DNA of 64,000 bases from the sequence record LR746311; one strand, given 5' to 3'. How positions within the stretch are numbered: position 1 is the stretch's first letter; every line of letters begins with the position of its first letter. The stretch is from Shigella phage vB_SsoM_113. Below are positions 3,981-47,812 of the stretch, piece after piece. The notes under the pieces are model-generated. The model had not been told where the DNA came from. It saw only the letters and a list, made by a program, of their open reading frames with translations, and ran no database searches. The position numbers and the translations under genes are program-made.

Positions 3981-4977
3981 TTGGCATTTAGGCGTTAAAG
4001 CTGATGATGAGTGGATTCGCGGTATTCAAATTGATGGAATTAAGCAAGCGATAGAATATTCTAAGAAAAATGGAATTACTGTATGGATTCAATATGGTGA
4101 TATTTTTGATGTGCGAAAAGCAATCACACATAAAACTATGGAGTTTGCCCGTGAAATAGTTCAAATGCTTGATGGTGCTGGAATCACATTACATACTATT
4201 GTAGGAAATCACGATCTCCACTACAAAAATGTAATGCATCCAAATGCTTCTACTGAGCTTTTGGCTAAATATCCTAATGTTAAAGTATATGATAAGCCTA
4301 CTACAGTAGATTTTGACGGATGTTTGATTGATTTAATTCCTTGGATGTGCGAAGAAAATACTGGTGAAATTCTTGAACACATCAAAACTTCATCTGCTTC
4401 TTTTTGTGTTGGTCACTGGGAACTGAATGGATTTTATTTTTATAAAGGAATGAAATCTCACGGTCTTGAACCTGATTTCCTTAAGACTTATAAAGAGGTG
4501 TGGTCTGGTCACTTCCATACTATCTCTGAGGCTGCTAACGTCAGATATATTGGGACACCATGGACACTAACTGCGGGTGACGAGAATGACCCTCGTGGGT
4601 TCTGGATGTTTGATACAGAAACAGAACGAATGGAATTTATTCCAAACAACACCACCTGGCATCGTCGAATTCAATATCCATTTAAGGGGAAAATTGACTA
4701 TAAAGATTTTACAAATCTATCAGTACGTGTTATAGTAACTGAAGTAGACAAAAATCTAACGAAGTTCGAATCTGAACTAGAAAAAGTTGTGCATTCATTA
4801 CGAGTTGTGTCAAAGATTGATAACTCTGTCGAGTCAGATGATAGTGAAGAAGTTGAAGTTCAATCTCTTCAGACATTGATGGAAGAATACATTAATGCAA
4901 TTCCAGACATCACTGATTCTGACCGTGAAGCACTTATTCAATATGCAAATCAGTTATATGTAGAGGCAACACAATGA
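3958..4977 (+). CDS. 47: recombination nuclease subunit gp47 (Mre11-like)
   Basis: 339-aa product MKILNLGDWHLG with phosphoesterase motifs, recognised as T4 gp47. Confidence 0.93.
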   Translation: MKILNLGDWHLGVKADDEWIRGIQIDGIKQAIEYSKKNGITVWIQYGDIFDVRKAITHKTMEFAREIVQMLDGAGITLHTIVGNHDLHYKNVMHPNASTELLAKYPNVKVYDKPTTVDFDGCLIDLIPWMCEENTGEILEHIKTSSASFCVGHWELNGFYFYKGMKSHGLEPDFLKTYKEVWSGHFHTISEAANVRYIGTPWTLTAGDENDPRGFWMFDTETERMEFIPNNTTWHRRIQYPFKGKIDYKDFTNLSVRVIVTEVDKNLTKFESELEKVVHSLRVVSKIDNSVESDDSEEVEVQSLQTLMEEYINAIPDITDSDREALIQYANQLYVEATQ

Positions 4978-41656: not shown

Positions 41657-42985
41657 ATGCAACTGAATAATCGCGATTTAAAAAGTATCATTGATAATGA
41701 AGCATTGGCTTATGCTATGTACACGGTTGAAAATCGTGCTATCCCAAATATGATTGACGGATTTAAGCCAGTTCAACGATTTGTTATTGCTCGAGCTCTT
41801 GATTTAGCACGAGGAAATAAAGATAAGTTTCACAAACTCGCTTCTATTGCAGGTGGTGTAGCAGACCTTGGATATCATCATGGTGAAATCTCTGCACAAG
41901 ACGCAGGTGCTTTGATGGCTAACACTTGGAATAATAACTTTCCTTTGTTAGATGGTCAAGGAAACTTTGGTTCTCGTACCGTTCAAAAAGCAGCGGCAAG
42001 TCGTTATATTTTTGCTCGTGTAAGTAAAAATTTCTATAACGTATATAAAGATACTGAATATGCTCCGGTACATCAAGATAAAGAACACATTCCGCCTGCT
42101 TTCTATTTGCCTATTATTCCTACTGTTCTTCTTAATGGTGTTTCCGGTATTGCAACTGGTTATGCAACTTACATTCTTCCTCATAGTGTTTCTTCTGTCA
42201 AGAAAGCTGTATTGCAAGCTCTTCAAGGAAAGAAAGTAACTAAACCTAAGGTAGAATTCCCAGAATTTCGTGGTGAAGTCGTTGAAATTGACGGTCAATA
42301 TGAAATTCGTGGAACGTACAAGTTTACTTCACGAACTCAAATGCATATCACTGAGATTCCGTATAAGTATGATCGTGAAACTTATGTGAGTAAAATCTTA
42401 GACCCGCTTGAAGATAAAGGCTTCATTACATGGGATGATGCTTGTGGTGAGCATGGTTTTGGCTTCAAAGTTAAATTCCGTAAAGAATATTCCTTGAGCG
42501 ATAACGAAGAAGAACGCCATGCAAAAATTATGAAAGACTTCGGGTTGATTGAGCGTCGTTCCCAGAATATTACCGTTATTAATGAGAAAGGAAAACTACA
42601 AGTTTACGATAACGTAGTTGATTTAATCAAAGACTTCGTTGAAGTTCGTAAAACTTATGTCCAAAAACGAATTGATAACAAAATCAAAGAAACTGAATCA
42701 GCATTTCGTTTAGCCTTTGCCAAGGCACATTTCATTAAGAAAGTAATTTCAGGTGAAATTGTTGTACAAGGTAAAACTCGTAAAGAACTGACCGAAGAAC
42801 TTTCTAAAATTGATATGTATTCTTCTTATGTTGATAAACTAGTTGGAATGAACATTTTTCATATGACTTCCGACGAAGCAAAGAAACTTGCTGAAGAAGC
42901 TAAAGCTAAAAAAGAAGAAAACGAATATTGGAAAACTACTGATGTAGTTACCGAATACACTAAAGATTTAGAGGAAATCAAATGA
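41657..42985 (+). CDS. 52: DNA topoisomerase II subunit gp52 (GyrA-like)
   Basis: 442-aa product MQLNNRDLKSIIDNEALAYAMYTVENRAIPNMIDGFKPVQR. Confidence 0.95.
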   Translation: MQLNNRDLKSIIDNEALAYAMYTVENRAIPNMIDGFKPVQRFVIARALDLARGNKDKFHKLASIAGGVADLGYHHGEISAQDAGALMANTWNNNFPLLDGQGNFGSRTVQKAAASRYIFARVSKNFYNVYKDTEYAPVHQDKEHIPPAFYLPIIPTVLLNGVSGIATGYATYILPHSVSSVKKAVLQALQGKKVTKPKVEFPEFRGEVVEIDGQYEIRGTYKFTSRTQMHITEIPYKYDRETYVSKILDPLEDKGFITWDDACGEHGFGFKVKFRKEYSLSDNEEERHAKIMKDFGLIERRSQNITVINEKGKLQVYDNVVDLIKDFVEVRKTYVQKRIDNKIKETESAFRLAFAKAHFIKKVISGEIVVQGKTRKELTEELSKIDMYSSYVDKLVGMNIFHMTSDEAKKLAEEAKAKKEENEYWKTTDVVTEYTKDLEEIK

Positions 42986-43131
42986 GTCCATTCATTGGTA
43001 TTACAAGCGCTGCGTTAGTATCCGGTGGCATTTTACTGGCGGGTTTAGGTGTTGTTCCTGCTGTAGCAGGAGGTCTTCTTGCGTTCGGAATTCAACGTGT
43101 TATCATGACAGTTATCACAGTCATGCAGTAA
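42982..43131 (+). CDS. small hydrophobic protein (49 aa)
   Basis: ATGA-coupled to gene 52; Gly/Ala/Val-rich TM peptide; not in track. Confidence 0.4.
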   Translation: MSPFIGITSAALVSGGILLAGLGVVPAVAGGLLAFGIQRVIMTVITVMQ

Positions 43132-43136
43132 TTTTA

Positions 43137-43163
43137 GGGAGAGCCGAGGCTCTCCCTTTTTTT
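43137..43163 (+). terminator. rho-independent terminator
   Basis: gggagagcc-gag-ggctctccc hairpin then T7 tract. Confidence 0.75.
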
Positions 43164-43188
43164 ATTTCAAAAATTTTTTCACAAAACG

Positions 43189-43218
43189 GTTTACAAGCAT
43201 AAAGCCTTATGGTACTAT
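43189..43218 (+). promoter_or_regulatory. T4-type early promoter
   Basis: GTTTAC 43189-43194, 18-nt spacer, TACTATacaact. Confidence 0.55.
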
Positions 43219-43266
43219 ACAACTATCAAATAAATGAACTGAAACAAACAACCCGGAGATACAAAA

Positions 43267-43494
43267 ATGAAATTTAAAATCGAAAACGAAATCGTTAAAG
43301 CTAAAAATGCTCTGACTGCTAACAAACTGGTTGTAGATGGTATTGAATATGATATCTGTGGAGTTCGTGAAGAAAAACCCGGTGTTCTGACTTTCTTCAC
43401 AATGATTTTTAAATTTAAAGGTGACACAGAATTCAAACAGTTTGATTTTGCCCATGAAGACGAAATCGAAGTTCGTAATCTGAACATTAAGTAA
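43267..43494 (+). CDS. hypothetical protein (75 aa)
   Basis: GGAGA RBS, ATG 43267. Confidence 0.55.
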   Translation: MKFKIENEIVKAKNALTANKLVVDGIEYDICGVREEKPGVLTFFTMIFKFKGDTEFKQFDFAHEDEIEVRNLNIK

Positions 43495-43533
43495 GTACTT
43501 TATTAGAGCTCTTGAAAAAGAGTGCAAAAAAGT

Positions 43534-43562
43534 GTTTACTTCTGCTTTAAACATGATACTAT
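43534..43562 (+). promoter_or_regulatory. T4-type early promoter of motA
   Basis: GTTTAC 43534-43539, 17-nt spacer, TACTAT 43557-43562. Confidence 0.55.
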
Positions 43563-43599
43563 AGACCTATCAAATAAATGAACTGAAACGGAGATTAAA

Positions 43600-44235
43600 A
43601 TGTCTAAAGTAACTTACATCATCAAAGCTTCTAACGATGTTCTGAATGAAAAAACTGCTGCGATTTTAATTACCATTGCTAAGAAAGATTTCATTACAGC
43701 CGCAGAAGTTCGTGAGGTGCATCCAGATTTAGGTAACGCAGTAGTTAATAGTAATATTGGGGTATTGATTAAAAAAGGCCTGGTGGAGAAATCTGGTGAT
43801 GGATTAATCATTACAGGCGAAGCTCAGGATATTATTTCAAATGCAGCAACTTTATACGCGCAGGAAAATGCTCCTGAACTACTGAAAAAACGAGCAACTC
43901 GTAAAGCTCGCGAGATTACTTCCGATATGGAAGAAGATAAAGACTTCATGTTAAAACTTTTAGATGAAAATGGATTTGTTCTTAAAAAGGTTGAAACTTA
44001 CCGCAGTAACTATCTTGCTATTTTAGAAAAACGCACTCACGGAATTCGTAATTTTGAAATTAATAACAATGGAAATATGCGAATTTTTGGATACAAAATG
44101 ATGGAACACCATATTCAGAAATTTACTGATATTGGAATGTCATGTAAAATCGCTAAAAACGGCAATGTGTATCTTGACATTAAACGCTCGGCAGAAAACA
44201 TTGAAGCAGTAATCACCGTAGCATCTGAACTGTGA
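43600..44235 (+). CDS. motA: middle-transcription activator MotA
   Basis: 211-aa product MSKVTYIIKASNDVLNEKTAAILITIAKKDFITAAEVREV, recognised as T4 MotA. Confidence 0.93.
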   Translation: MSKVTYIIKASNDVLNEKTAAILITIAKKDFITAAEVREVHPDLGNAVVNSNIGVLIKKGLVEKSGDGLIITGEAQDIISNAATLYAQENAPELLKKRATRKAREITSDMEEDKDFMLKLLDENGFVLKKVETYRSNYLAILEKRTHGIRNFEINNNGNMRIFGYKMMEHHIQKFTDIGMSCKIAKNGNVYLDIKRSAENIEAVITVASEL

Positions 44236-44245
44236 GGAATAAATA

Positions 44246-44590
44246 ATGAACAAGTTAGAAATTGTTAATGAACTTCGTCGTTGTGCAGAACCCACTCAAG
44301 AGGGGTGGGACATCTGGTACCATGGAGCTTATCTTGGAACTATTGTTAAAGTTAGAACTGGGCTATATTTAATTATTCGTGAAAATTCTGAATTACCCAA
44401 CGGAGTAGCTCCTGGCGGTGTACGTAAAAACTTCATGGCAGCGATTAGTACCTTTGTTCAATCGGCTTACGAAATTTACCTTGCTGATTATAAAGAATTC
44501 CAGGAATCTCAACCAGTTATTCGCTCAATTGGTGTTAACAAAGCTCGACAGAAAACTTTGTGGCAGCGTATTAAAGGATGGTTTAAATGA
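44246..44590 (+). CDS. hypothetical protein (114 aa)
   Basis: GAGGAA RBS. Confidence 0.55.
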
Positions 44591-45048
44591 ACCCATTTAT
44601 TAATCGTTTAAAAATGCTGAGTGTTCCTTTATCTCGCGAAACTCCAGAAAGTCTTGTTGAAAAATTTAAAGCGCATGGTTATAAATGCACAGAAGAAGAT
44701 ATTCTGAAAGAAGTTCCTGAAATCTGTTGGCAGTCTGCATATTGGGACGAAAATCAAAAATATCAACGACGAATTGTTTGCGCAGCCAACCGTTTTAAAT
44801 TAAAAGATGGACGAACTCTTGTTATTCCAGGTGCTCGTCATTATTCTAAAGATATGGCAGAAGTTTTAGATGTAGTTAAACCCCAATTAGTTACTCAGCA
44901 AGTTTGTGATGATGACCAAGGGTTTATTGATCAGTATAGTAATTATTGGACACGTGAAGAAGCAATGATTATTGCAACTTACGCAGGACAAGTACGTATT
45001 GAACGCGGTGGTAGTGAAAAAGAACTTTACTCTGAGGACCTTTACTAA
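44587..45048 (+). CDS. hypothetical protein (153 aa)
   Basis: ATGA-coupled ORF. Confidence 0.55.
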
Positions 45049-45344
45049 TGAATATTAAAAAGTTTCAAATTGATGGAATTAAGAATCAAATCCAGGCGTT
45101 GGAATATGCCAATAAAATGATGTCATCTAATTGGGGAATTTATGCCAATGAACCGGCATTTCAGTTCTGTGATATGGAATTCACCAAAAAGCTCGTAGGA
45201 AAAGATTATGTATGTCCATTTAGTTCTATAATAAATGACATGTTAAAACCTGCTTTACGCGATCTTTATATTGCGATGAACGAAGAAATGATAAAAGAAC
45301 TAAAACGTCAACTGAAGGTGATTCAATTTGGCCAGGGAAATTAA
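45048..45344 (+). CDS. hypothetical protein (98 aa)
   Basis: TAATG-coupled ORF. Confidence 0.5.
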   Translation: MNIKKFQIDGIKNQIQALEYANKMMSSNWGIYANEPAFQFCDMEFTKKLVGKDYVCPFSSIINDMLKPALRDLYIAMNEEMIKELKRQLKVIQFGQGN

Positions 45345-45629
45345 TTCAAAATCCGATTATTTTAATTCTCTCAATGATAAAGATAAAAATCTAATACGGC
45401 ATTTTATCGTTGAGATGGGATATACTGATACACGTGATTTAAGAGAACATATATTTGAATGTGGTGTAGCTAAAAAGTTTTCATTCACGTGCAATTGTTT
45501 AAGAGAGGTAATTCAGCACTATGAACAATTTAGTCGCAAAACATAATTTTAATAAAGCTTCTGTCCATAAGGATAAGAAGAAAGCGTTTAAAGAATCTAA
45601 TCGCAAACAGAAACATAAGGGGAAGGTCT

Positions 45630-45908
45630 ATGATTATTGATTCTCAGTCTGTGGTTCAATACACAATCAAAATTGATATTCTAGAAAAGCTATACAAGTT
45701 TCTACCAAATTTATACCACTCAATTGTTAATGAATTAGTTGAAGAACTACATCTTGGGAATAATGATTTCTTGATTGGAACTTATAAAGATAACTCAAAG
45801 GCGGGATATTTTTACGTAATTCCAGCTCCAGGAAAAAGTATTGATGATGTATTAAAAACTATAATGATTTATGTCCTTGATTATGAAATTGAAGATTATT
45901 TCGAATGA
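45630..45908 (+). CDS. hypothetical acidic protein (92 aa; size and position compatible with an Arn-like anti-restriction protein)
   Basis: AAGGGGAAGG RBS; acidic 92-aa ORF upstream of asiA. Confidence 0.45.
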   Translation: MIIDSQSVVQYTIKIDILEKLYKFLPNLYHSIVNELVEELHLGNNDFLIGTYKDNSKAGYFYVIPAPGKSIDDVLKTIMIYVLDYEIEDYFE

Positions 45909-46057
45909 GTCATAATCTTGAAAAAGTAATCGAGCATAATGTAGCTCAGGAACGTAAGTCGTTCAAGGAATTCGTAGAAAAAATTTTTGAAGAAAATACC
46001 ACAGACCAGTTTACAAATCAAGCGTCTGATGATATTATAACAAAGTCAACTAATTGA
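45905..46057 (+). CDS. hypothetical protein (50 aa)
   Basis: ATGA-coupled; not in track. Confidence 0.35.
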   Translation: MSHNLEKVIEHNVAQERKSFKEFVEKIFEENTTDQFTNQASDDIITKSTN

Positions 46058-46069
46058 GTGGTATAGTTA

Positions 46070-46342
46070 ATGAATAAAAATATTGATACAGTTCGTGAAA
46101 TTATTACTGTTGCGTCTATTTTGATTAAATTTTCCAGAGAAGATATTGTTGAGAATCGCGCTAATTTTATTGCATTTCTGAATGAGATTGGAGTAACGCA
46201 TGAAGGTAGAAAGTTAAATCAGAATTCATTCCGTAAAATTGTTTCTGAATTAACTCAAGAAGATAAGAAAACCCTCATCGACGAATTCAACGAGGGTTTT
46301 GAGGGTGTATATCGATATCTAGAGATGTATACGAACAAATAA
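46070..46342 (+). CDS. asiA: anti-sigma70 factor AsiA
   Basis: 90-aa product MNKNIDTVREIITVASILIKFSREDIVENRANFIAFLNEIG, recognised as T4 AsiA. Confidence 0.93.
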   Translation: MNKNIDTVREIITVASILIKFSREDIVENRANFIAFLNEIGVTHEGRKLNQNSFRKIVSELTQEDKKTLIDEFNEGFEGVYRYLEMYTNK

Positions 46343-47029: not shown

Positions 47030-47812
47030 TTATACTCTTGGACCATATATTGCTCCAACGTTTTGCCATGTCGGTGTAGACCCTATGACGGCATAACCAG
47101 CAGCTCCGCCATCGTATTCATATCCTTGACCACGAATATTACATCTACCTCCTGCGGAGCCAACTTCACCACCAGACCCGCCGTTGTAGATACCGTTCAC
47201 AGACCCTGCGCCTGGCGCAGAAATAGTACCAGCAGTTGCTCCTGATTGCATATCAATAGATCCGCCCGGTGCGCCAAACGGACGACCGCCGCCACCGCCA
47301 AAGGTCAATCTCATTTGTGAAAAAGGAGAATAATACCCGCCGCCACCGCCGCCACCGCCGCCAGCAATAGCTCCACCATTATTAATTCTTAGTCTCCCAC
47401 CAATATCATTTTGAATACAATGACCCCCAGCTGAGCCAGGACTATTGCTACCGCCATTCCCGCCACGGCCATACATCGTTACACCATGTATGTTCAACTG
47501 AACATATTCATTCGGTGTATCTCCGTACATGAAGAATAAAGGAACATCTTTAGAATATGATACTAAATCTCCAGTGATATTAAACACTATAGGTGCACTA
47601 CCTGCCTCAAAACATCTATCTCGGAACCATTGACCATTGAAGTTATGGTCTGCTCCAAGTGTATGAATAATTTCTCTTGAGCGACCTGCAAATTGACTCA
47701 TCCAGCAAGGAACACCCAATCTTAATTGACCAGCTGCTTGACTCATCCAGCGCTGACCCGTTTCATTTACGGCTGAACTTCCAATCCAACCAGGAACACC
47801 AACTACTGCCAT
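47030..47812 (-). CDS. 38: gp38 tail-fibre tip adhesin with glycine-rich motifs (T2 type)
   Basis: 260 aa; conserved N-terminus [13 protein letters not shown]; repeated poly-Gly blocks (GGGGGGGGG, GGGGG). Confidence 0.9.

Follow-up and report, generated by a model that had tools for sequence, protein, structure and literature searches.

The motA–asiA interval of Shigella phage vB_SsoM_113 is the T-even arn block, with a longer arn.1 and a further small gene predicted

The interval between motA and asiA in Shigella phage vB_SsoM_113 (sequence record LR746311; the window is the whole stretch of 64,000 nucleotides (nt) analysed), at positions 44246–46057, is the "arn operon" of T-even phages together with asiA.1, in the order arn.4–arn.3–arn.2–arn.1–orf39–arn–asiA.1. 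The window itself belongs to a T-even (Tequatrovirus) phage genome and is oriented opposite to the T4 map. The explanation that best accounts for the whole of the evidence, to which a probability of about 80% can be assigned, is that the interval is a block of translationally coupled small accessory genes that is transcribed by read-through from early promoter(s) and whose non-Arn products act as independent host-directed effectors. The locus is already catalogued and is not novel.

Six open reading frames (ORFs) of 114, 153, 98, about 72, 92 and 50 amino acids (aa) had been described in an earlier note on this DNA as tightly coupled and devoid of an assignable function. All six are found where that note placed them, and their coupling is evident from ATGA overlaps at arn.4/arn.3 and arn/asiA.1, a TAATG overlap between arn.3 and arn.2, and the 17 nt that arn.2 and arn.1 have in common. 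However, the block would comprise seven genes, since a 39-aa ORF (orf39), with overlaps of 26 nt with arn.1 and 11 nt with arn, had been missed. Nor are the ORFs unassigned, as the T4 (NC_000866, T4p261–T4p256) and ime09 records already name the six as arn.4, arn.3, arn.2, arn.1, arn and asiA.1, and the order motA–arn.4–arn.3–arn.2–arn.1–arn–asiA.1–asiA is the same in both phages. The 2.7-kb motA–asiA stretch matches 829 phage records (megablast), with at least 80% covered in 477 of them and a best match of 98.5% identity. Within Tequatrovirus, DNA identity to T4 is 93–98% along the block with the exception of arn.4 (85%), whose product is also the most divergent from its T4 and ime09 counterparts (82% identity, compared with 93–100% for the remaining ORFs).

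The 92-aa protein is acidic (pI 4.5; 15 Asp and Glu residues versus 7 Lys and Arg) and had been noted to have the size of an Arn-like DNA mimic. The matches to Pfam DM_Arn (PF22134; 170.4 bits, cutoff 26, E=1e-50) and to PDB entry 3WX4 over its full length (residues 1–92; E=3.2e-52) identify it as Arn itself, so that the anti-restriction function expected in this interval is that of arn, whose product is predicted to be a DNA-mimic inhibitor of McrBC. Ocr, ArdA and other DNA mimics of phages and plasmids, which are small, acidic and made early, take the place of DNA at the binding sites of restriction enzymes. Arn works in the same way, although it has no sequence or fold relationship to them, and arn is the sole gene of this type in the block, where the other products are neutral or basic except for those of asiA.1 (pI 4.9) and arn.3 (pI 5.3). 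T4 Arn is known to inhibit McrBC restriction of non-glucosylated hydroxymethylcytosine DNA, and a genetic link to mcrC has been described in T2 (bioRxiv 10.64898/2026.06.19.733364). T4-Arn also blocks the PUA-Cal-HAD defence, and a 2026 preprint reports that the substitution N70S abolishes this inhibition. The window carries a T2-type allele, with I13 and S70 in place of the F13 and N70 of T4, and differs from T4 Arn at five residues in all (I13, G43, N55, S70 and L83). Because residue 70 is Ser, as in T2, this Arn should not inhibit PUA-Cal-HAD, and sensitivity to this defence would be expected in the phage.

Regarding transcription, no terminator is found on the plus strand between the promoter region (43190–43562) and asiA. 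Moreover, a consensus scan of 43100–46100 (TGCTTNA-N10-14-TANNNT, one mismatch allowed), which an atypical promoter would escape, detected no MotA-box promoter. Since the block has neither a terminator nor a MotA box of its own, it would be transcribed by read-through from the early promoter(s) that precede motA (Table 1), the copy directly upstream of that gene being the likely source of the transcript that covers the block.

The coding status of the ORFs was assessed by the ratio of nonsynonymous to synonymous differences (pN/pS) in pairwise codon comparisons with T4, ime09 and phages of four other Tevenvirinae genera (SP18, Entb_45, Moon and phiA85). Every ORF of the block shows a pN/pS of 0.05–0.45, with motA and asiA in the same range; together with the detection of the T4 homologues as proteins, these values argue that they are more than chance ORFs. 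For asiA.1, the ratio (0.33–0.45) is calculated from five differences at most from T4 or ime09. In the time-resolved transcriptome and proteome of T4, the RNAs of these six genes are all classified as early; at the protein level, Arn, Arn.2, Arn.3 and Arn.4 are early as well, whereas Arn.1 is middle and AsiA.1 late (PMC9697503 supplement). In a genome-wide dCas13d knock-down, asiA.1, arn and arn.1–arn.4 were all scored 'Not Fit', i.e., without fitness effect on the laboratory host, and gene 52 was scored 'Fit' in the same screen (PMC11879866 supplement). Genes that are both early and non-essential fit accessory or host-interaction roles, and the six non-Arn proteins would be independent small effectors acting on host components rather than housekeeping proteins.

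In the explanation given by the earlier note, the ORFs would form a hypervariable counter-defence island, each of them being an anti-defence gene of its own that undergoes rapid exchange and counters a system such as McrBC, GmrSD, CBASS or Thoeris. In its favour, Arn is a true anti-restriction protein with a second target in the case of T4, the genes are all early and none is essential on a laboratory host, and within the Tequatrovirus block arn.4 appears from sequence comparison as the only divergence hotspot, at 85% DNA identity to T4 versus 93–98% in its neighbours. The distribution of the genes was followed in 45 Tevenvirinae loci containing motA, arn.3 and asiA, which were selected through arn.3, so that the frequency of arn.3 itself is not measurable in this sample. 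The distance between motA and asiA varies from 1,347 to 2,723 nt, and gene content between orf39 and asiA changes with the genus: arn and asiA.1 are present in nine loci each and, as recognisable sequences, only in Tequatrovirus, and other genera carry different ORFs in that segment and have additional ones at the arn.4/arn.3 or arn.3/arn.2 junction. However, arn.4 and orf39 are found in all 45 loci, arn.2 in 36 and arn.1 in 25, and the pN/pS of arn.4, arn.3, orf39 and arn.2 resembles that of motA and asiA, which is not a pattern of turnover. The hypervariability attributed to the interval would therefore apply only in part, to the segment after orf39 and to the insertions between arn.4, arn.3 and arn.2, and in this sample the locus is a conserved scaffold, with arn.4, arn.3 and orf39 as constant elements, followed by a fast-evolving distal part.

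Some of these ORFs of other genera are diverged relatives of the Tequatrovirus genes. At the position of arn, Klebsiella phage phiA85 encodes a full-length Arn homologue (phiA85_00157, L006 3452–3730; 28% identity, pairwise E=1e-5), which is mislabelled as 'putative holin' in the database. The N-terminus of asiA.1, MSHNLE, is common to ORFs of 54–90 aa that immediately precede asiA in SP18, Moon and phiA85. ORF 049 of Entb_45 has an Arn-like acidic tail (Y-E-L-E-E-Y), but gave no BLASTP alignment to Arn and was not counted as a homologue.

Searches of anti-defence and defence families in Pfam, PHROGs, NCBIfam and PADLOC with arn.1–arn.4, orf39 and asiA.1 returned sub-threshold matches only. 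Apart from Arn, no ORF of the block matches a described anti-defence family. Homologues of arn.1–arn.4 are widely labelled 'anti-restriction nuclease', a label that expands the gene name and does not reflect a finding. Taken together, a counter-defence island in this strict sense seems improbable, though less so than the other alternatives discussed below. Remote homology searches, proposed along with structure prediction in the earlier note as a check, identified Arn and assigned orf39 to DUF7230, and left the other ORFs with no described anti-defence family. Its suggestion of host-takeover or counter-defence candidates fits genes with early, non-essential, accessory roles, although none of the evidence links arn.1–arn.4 or asiA.1 to counter-defence.

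Among the less characterised genes, arn.4 has 55 homologues, exclusively in T4-like phages. Its model is of moderate quality (predicted local distance difference test, pLDDT, 76) and begins with a helix, after which come a sheet of five strands, two further helices and a disordered linker; a C-terminal amphipathic helix closes it and ends in KGWFK, an ending conserved even in Moonvirus; it may be speculated that this modelled helix binds a membrane or a partner. A match of arn.4 to REase_II (E=0.007) is sub-threshold and was treated as chance. The gene starts with ATG in the window (44246–44248) and in ime09, whereas T4 has ATA at this position (NC_000866, 162956–162958) followed by an intact frame of 109 codons; due to this ATA, the T4 record has the protein begin at an internal Met and covers just its final 68 aa. 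The product of arn.2 (93–95% identical to T4 and ime09) has no match in Pfam or PDB, and a 36%-identical stretch inside gp47 (4015–4161) was discarded as a chance match. For arn.2, arn.1, orf39 and asiA.1, no family, fold or literature evidence of a role was found. Precomputed families exist in protein databases for arn.4 (PF26821), arn.3 (PF26092) and arn.1 (PF26827); neither these nor DUF7230 are mentioned in the literature searched, in which a single paper names arn.1–arn.4 in its main text.

In T4, arn.1 is annotated as its last 43 aa only, from the ATG at 45415, which lacks a properly spaced Shine–Dalgarno sequence. A TTG at 45328 has AAGGTG 7 nt upstream, and the comparative data indicate that the true arn.1 is a 72-aa protein starting at this codon. 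All 19 distinct variants (27 loci) have a start codon 6–7 codons before the motif K[SA][DE]YFNSLN, which is ATG in 11 of them, GTG in three and TTG in the T4/T2 group, so that the ATG or GTG found in this place in other genera supports the TTG start. The Met annotated as the first residue in T4 is Leu in most other genera. In the upstream 29 codons, the protein is 50–65% identical to those of Entb_45 and phiA85 with just 54–60% identity at the DNA level, and the four nucleotides that differ from T4 are all in third positions and leave the protein unchanged. The C-terminal half of the protein resembles a helix-turn-helix (HTH) and contains conserved H41, C45, C57 and, nearly always, H64. These residues and the HTH-like segment ECGVAKKFSFTCNCLREVIQHY hint at nucleic-acid or metal binding, although a Pfam search with arn.1 retrieved no HTH or zinc-finger family, even at E≤0.1.

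The longer arn.1 bears on a recently described regulation of the arn transcript. Collins et al. (2026) reported that the host small RNA ArcZ pairs with positions +285 to +294 of arn.2 and protects the T2 arn transcript from RNase E, which is said to act at GCAUU, 11 nt before the arn.1 ATG, and described the arn.2–arn.1 spacer as a 70-nt 'intergenic region' (bioRxiv 10.64898/2026.06.19.733364). Both elements are present in the window (Table 1), where the gene order and the positions of CCAGGGAAAT and GCATT are as in the T4/T2 arn operon, while the 72-aa arn.1 and the extra 39-aa gene are recognised neither in the T4 record nor in the preprint. The ArcZ complement CCAGGGAAAT occurs as a single exact copy in the window and spans the last codons of arn.2 and codons 2–5 of arn.1. 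Because arn.1 would start at TTG 45328, the RNase E site would lie inside its coding region and the 70-nt 'intergenic region' would encode the conserved arn.1 N-terminus. Moreover, since the ArcZ site covers arn.1 codons 2–5, ArcZ would pair on the translation-initiation region of the 72-aa gene. T4 and ime09 have the ArcZ site, which SP18, Entb_45, Moon and phiA85 lack. A scan with RNAduplex yielded long interrupted duplexes with ArcZ that could not be interpreted, and only the exact 10-nt complement is relied on here; Rfam returned only sub-threshold noise.

The product of orf39 is small and strongly basic (12 Lys and Arg in 39 residues, pI 10.2) and matches Pfam DUF7230 (PF23876; 44.9 bits, cutoff 27, E=1.2e-11). 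The ime09 record lists it as hypothetical and the T4 RefSeq record omits it, even though its sequence is 100% identical in both phages, and identity falls to 66–76% in the four other genera. The differences from these genera concentrate in the third codon position (5/2/17 for the first, second and third positions versus SP18; pN/pS 0.11–0.22), which, together with its occurrence in all the Tevenvirinae loci compared, points to orf39 as the seventh gene of the block.

Table 1. Position of the genes and putative regulatory elements of the motA–asiA region in the window.
Feature	Position	Strand	Characteristics
Early-type sigma-70 promoter	43190..43218	+	TTTACA-17-TACTAT with TGn; after motA.1 terminator (43136–43157), before 75-aa ORF
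Second early promoter and leader copy	43535..43562	+	TTTACT-16-TACTAT; directly upstream of motA, part of 37-nt repeat
motA	43600..44235	+	Middle-transcription activator, left flank; Pfam MotA_activ E=4.7e-61, MotCF E=9.2e-67
arn.4	44246..44590	+	114 aa, pI 9.5
arn.3	44587..45048	+	153 aa
arn.2	45048..45344	+	98 aa; PHROG 1844 E=7.5e-50
arn.1, predicted long form	45328..45546	+	72 aa, TTG start
ArcZ pairing site	45332..45341	+	Exact complement of E. coli ArcZ nt 65–74
GCATT	45399..45403	+	Published putative RNase E site; 11 nt before ATG 45415, within arn.1 codons 24–26
orf39	45521..45640	+	39 aa, lysine-rich; Pfam DUF7230
arn	45630..45908	+	92 aa, pI 4.5; Pfam DM_Arn, PDB 3WX4
14-nt perfect inverted repeat	45712..45725; partner 46052–46065	+	Upstream arm inside arn, partner in asiA ribosome-binding region; 326 nt apart
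asiA.1	45905..46057	+	50 aa, acidic; PHROG 3762 E=3e-37
Early-type promoter	46010..46038	+	TTTACA-17-TATTAT, TG; inside asiA.1, upstream of asiA
asiA	46070..46342	+	Anti-sigma-70 factor, right flank; Pfam AsiA E=1e-42

The end of the block contains a further element that may influence asiA. The two arms of a 14-nt perfect inverted repeat, one inside arn and the other in the ribosome-binding region of asiA, close the predicted minimum free energy fold of 45701–46090, and the early-type promoter of asiA.1 is located between them. Among nine Tequatrovirus loci, the arms vary by a single C/T change that retains a G-U pair. In T4 genes e, soc and I-TevI, long early transcripts hide the start site in a structure of the mRNA, while promoter-proximal transcripts expose it. 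The arrangement in the window is similar in that the asiA ribosome-binding region has an upstream complement, with a promoter between the arms, and differs in the 326 nt that separate these arms, given that the known cases are local hairpins. It is possible that the asiA start is sequestered on read-through transcripts and exposed on those initiated at the proximal promoter.

This repeat and the RNA sites at the arn.2–arn.1 junction, which are experimentally supported, could also be taken to indicate that asiA.1, orf39 and the 29 N-terminal codons of arn.1 are untranslated and conserved only as RNA, i.e., as the ArcZ/RNase E region and as leader or structural elements of arn and asiA; the repeat connects the coding sequence of arn with the ribosome-binding site of asiA, and the coding evidence for asiA.1 is thin (at most five differences from T4 or ime09). 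However, orf39 has a Pfam match above the cutoff and differences mainly in third positions, the arn.1 N-terminus is conserved as protein and retains an open frame and a start codon in 19 of 19 variants, and the ArcZ site is absent from other genera that keep the arn.1 coding segment. Furthermore, T4 AsiA.1 and Arn.1 were detected by proteomics (PMC9697503 supplement). Conservation as RNA only is accordingly considered very unlikely, and translated accessory genes remain the preferred explanation.

One component of the block, Arn.3, belongs to a very large protein family that is almost confined to phages, and consists of a variable helical N-terminus (residues ~1–45) and a conserved C-terminal domain of ~95 aa. 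It matches PHROG 839 (E=1.1e-73) with the motif AA..RH..QGFxD..R..A..Q..LxSExLY complete, and cluster representatives 96–97% identical to it carry the precomputed family PF26092. In addition to 156 close homologues, the domain was detected by tBLASTn in 1,587 phage records, including Ackermannviridae, rV5-like, Certrevirus, phiKZ-like, Aeromonas and Vibrio phages. A profile search against 1.84 billion representatives retrieved 3,348 clusters (50% identity) at E≤1e-3 and 1,360 at E≤1e-10, mostly stand-alone proteins of 90–110 aa with the domain at the extreme C-terminus, while in bacteria and archaea it appeared in only three contigs of metagenome-assembled genomes among 185,579 genomes. In 146 diverse members, the residues conserved in at least 90% are V64, A66, A67, R84, H85, Q111, G112, F113, D115, R123, A126, A130, Q135, L147, S149, E150, L152 and the C-terminal Y153, of which R84, H85, Q111, G112, F113, D115, R123, Q135, S149, E150 and Y153 form an invariant set. 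Two tandem forms (P0107 and P0189) contain a degenerate second copy of the domain.

In agreement with the earlier note, which had found no assignable fold for the 153-aa protein, the AlphaFold2 model of Arn.3 is of high quality (pLDDT 90.9) and has no fold match in PDB. Against BFVD, it retrieved only uncharacterised phage proteins and weak matches inside 'large polyvalent protein' ORFs (E 0.008–0.09), which are suggestive and unconfirmed. Ten long proteins carry the domain at their C-terminus, and their N-terminal parts have no Pfam or informative PHROG match. In the neighbourhood of 72 viral loci from 18 lineages, no family is common to more than two lineages, and the loci of Vi01, alia and phiTE have no common partner gene. 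Matches of Arn.3 to Prok-E2_B (E=0.056), PD-T4-9_B (E=0.011) and the Nif11 leader (E=0.004) are sub-threshold and were treated as chance.

Since an invariant polar constellation is kept across phages of very different hosts, Arn.3 might be, with low confidence, a stand-alone and probably dimeric enzyme or small-ligand binder, with a pocket that would be built from R84-H85, Q111-G-F-x-D115, R123, Q135 and the S-E-x-L-Y tail at the C-terminus. Acb1, Acb2/T4 Vs.4, Tad1, Tad2 and Apyc1 are small proteins with which phages degrade or sequester immune signals. By analogy, Arn.3 resembles them as a small, early, stand-alone protein of unrelated phages with a polar constellation, and its duplicated forms may suggest an oligomer, as in this group; however, no sequence or fold similarity to any of them was detected. 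A broader proposal, that Arn.3 would be a new-fold early enzyme or small-molecule binder of many unrelated virulent phages, e.g., destroying or sequestering a host signalling or defence nucleotide, with an active site formed by R84-H85, Q111/D115, R123, Q135 and the S-E-x-L-Y carboxylate of the C-terminus, and that ArcZ would act at the start of the 72-aa arn.1, is put forward as tentative and on balance doubtful.

Another explanation for the non-Arn proteins is that they are modulators of gene expression placed between MotA and AsiA, none of them with a counter-defence function: arn.1 would encode an HTH or zinc binder, orf39 a basic peptide that binds RNA, DNA or the ribosome, and arn.4 and arn.3 take-over cofactors. 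The genes form one transcription unit with motA and asiA, arn.4, arn.3 and orf39 co-occur with these two genes in every sampled genus, and both the conserved residues and HTH-like segment of arn.1 and the charge of orf39 are in line with such functions. Nevertheless, arn.1 has no match to HTH or zinc-finger families, and the knock-downs had no fitness cost (PMC11879866 supplement). Furthermore, homologues of Arn.3 occur in phages that lack MotA and AsiA (Vi01-like, rV5-like and phiKZ-like), and its role thus cannot depend on these regulators. A set of expression modulators is considered rather unlikely, somewhat more so than a counter-defence island.

Several observations weigh against an early-transcribed block of host-directed effectors, although this remains the preferred interpretation. 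Firstly, the preprint labels the arn transcript as 'middle' (bioRxiv 10.64898/2026.06.19.733364), whereas no MotA box is found here and read-through from early promoters agrees with the 'early' RNA class of T4 (PMC9697503). Secondly, because every sampled genus retains arn.4, arn.3 and orf39 under a constraint like that of motA, a core regulatory or physiological role is as compatible with the data as counter-defence. Thirdly, the choice of loci through arn.3 says nothing on how often this gene is absent. Finally, the case for Arn.3 as an enzyme or binder is a conservation pattern, and a conserved protein- or nucleic-acid-binding surface gives the same pattern.

Upstream of the block, the window contains the gene for the topoisomerase gp52 (41657–42985) and motA.1 (42982–43131), followed by a strong terminator and a 75-aa ORF (43267–43494; PHROG 10955) that lies between motA.1 and motA, has no counterpart in T4 and ime09, and is found in only 167 phage records. 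This ORF is flanked by a 37-nt direct repeat (43209–43245 and 43553–43589, 92% identical) that duplicates the -10 element and leader of the motA early promoter, and looks like an inserted accessory gene which carried a promoter with it or copied one. In Tequatrovirus, it is the motA.1–motA junction, and not the motA–asiA interval, that is clearly variable. Downstream of asiA, the minus strand encodes holin t, gp38 and gp37, with gp38 (47030–47812) being the 260-aa adhesin type of T2/T6 with glycine-rich motifs and not the 183-aa assembly chaperone of T4, which agrees with the T2-like Arn allele. The MotA homologues of Entb_45 (L004 1532–2164) and phiA85 (L006 1346–1990) are mislabelled as 'flagellar motor protein' in confusion with bacterial MotA.

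As a locus, nothing has changed: this is the catalogued arn block, and its sole characterised gene encodes the known anti-restriction protein Arn. The by-products of the analysis are corrections of the annotation that bear on the ArcZ mechanism proposed in the preprint, by which the ArcZ and RNase E sites would be located in and beside the start of a 72-aa arn.1. Moreover, the T4 reference annotation lacks a 39-aa gene that is conserved in all the loci sampled, and T4 arn.4 has lost its ATG. Lastly, Arn.3 emerges from these comparisons as a well-defined, widespread and experimentally tractable domain with clear candidate catalytic or binding residues.

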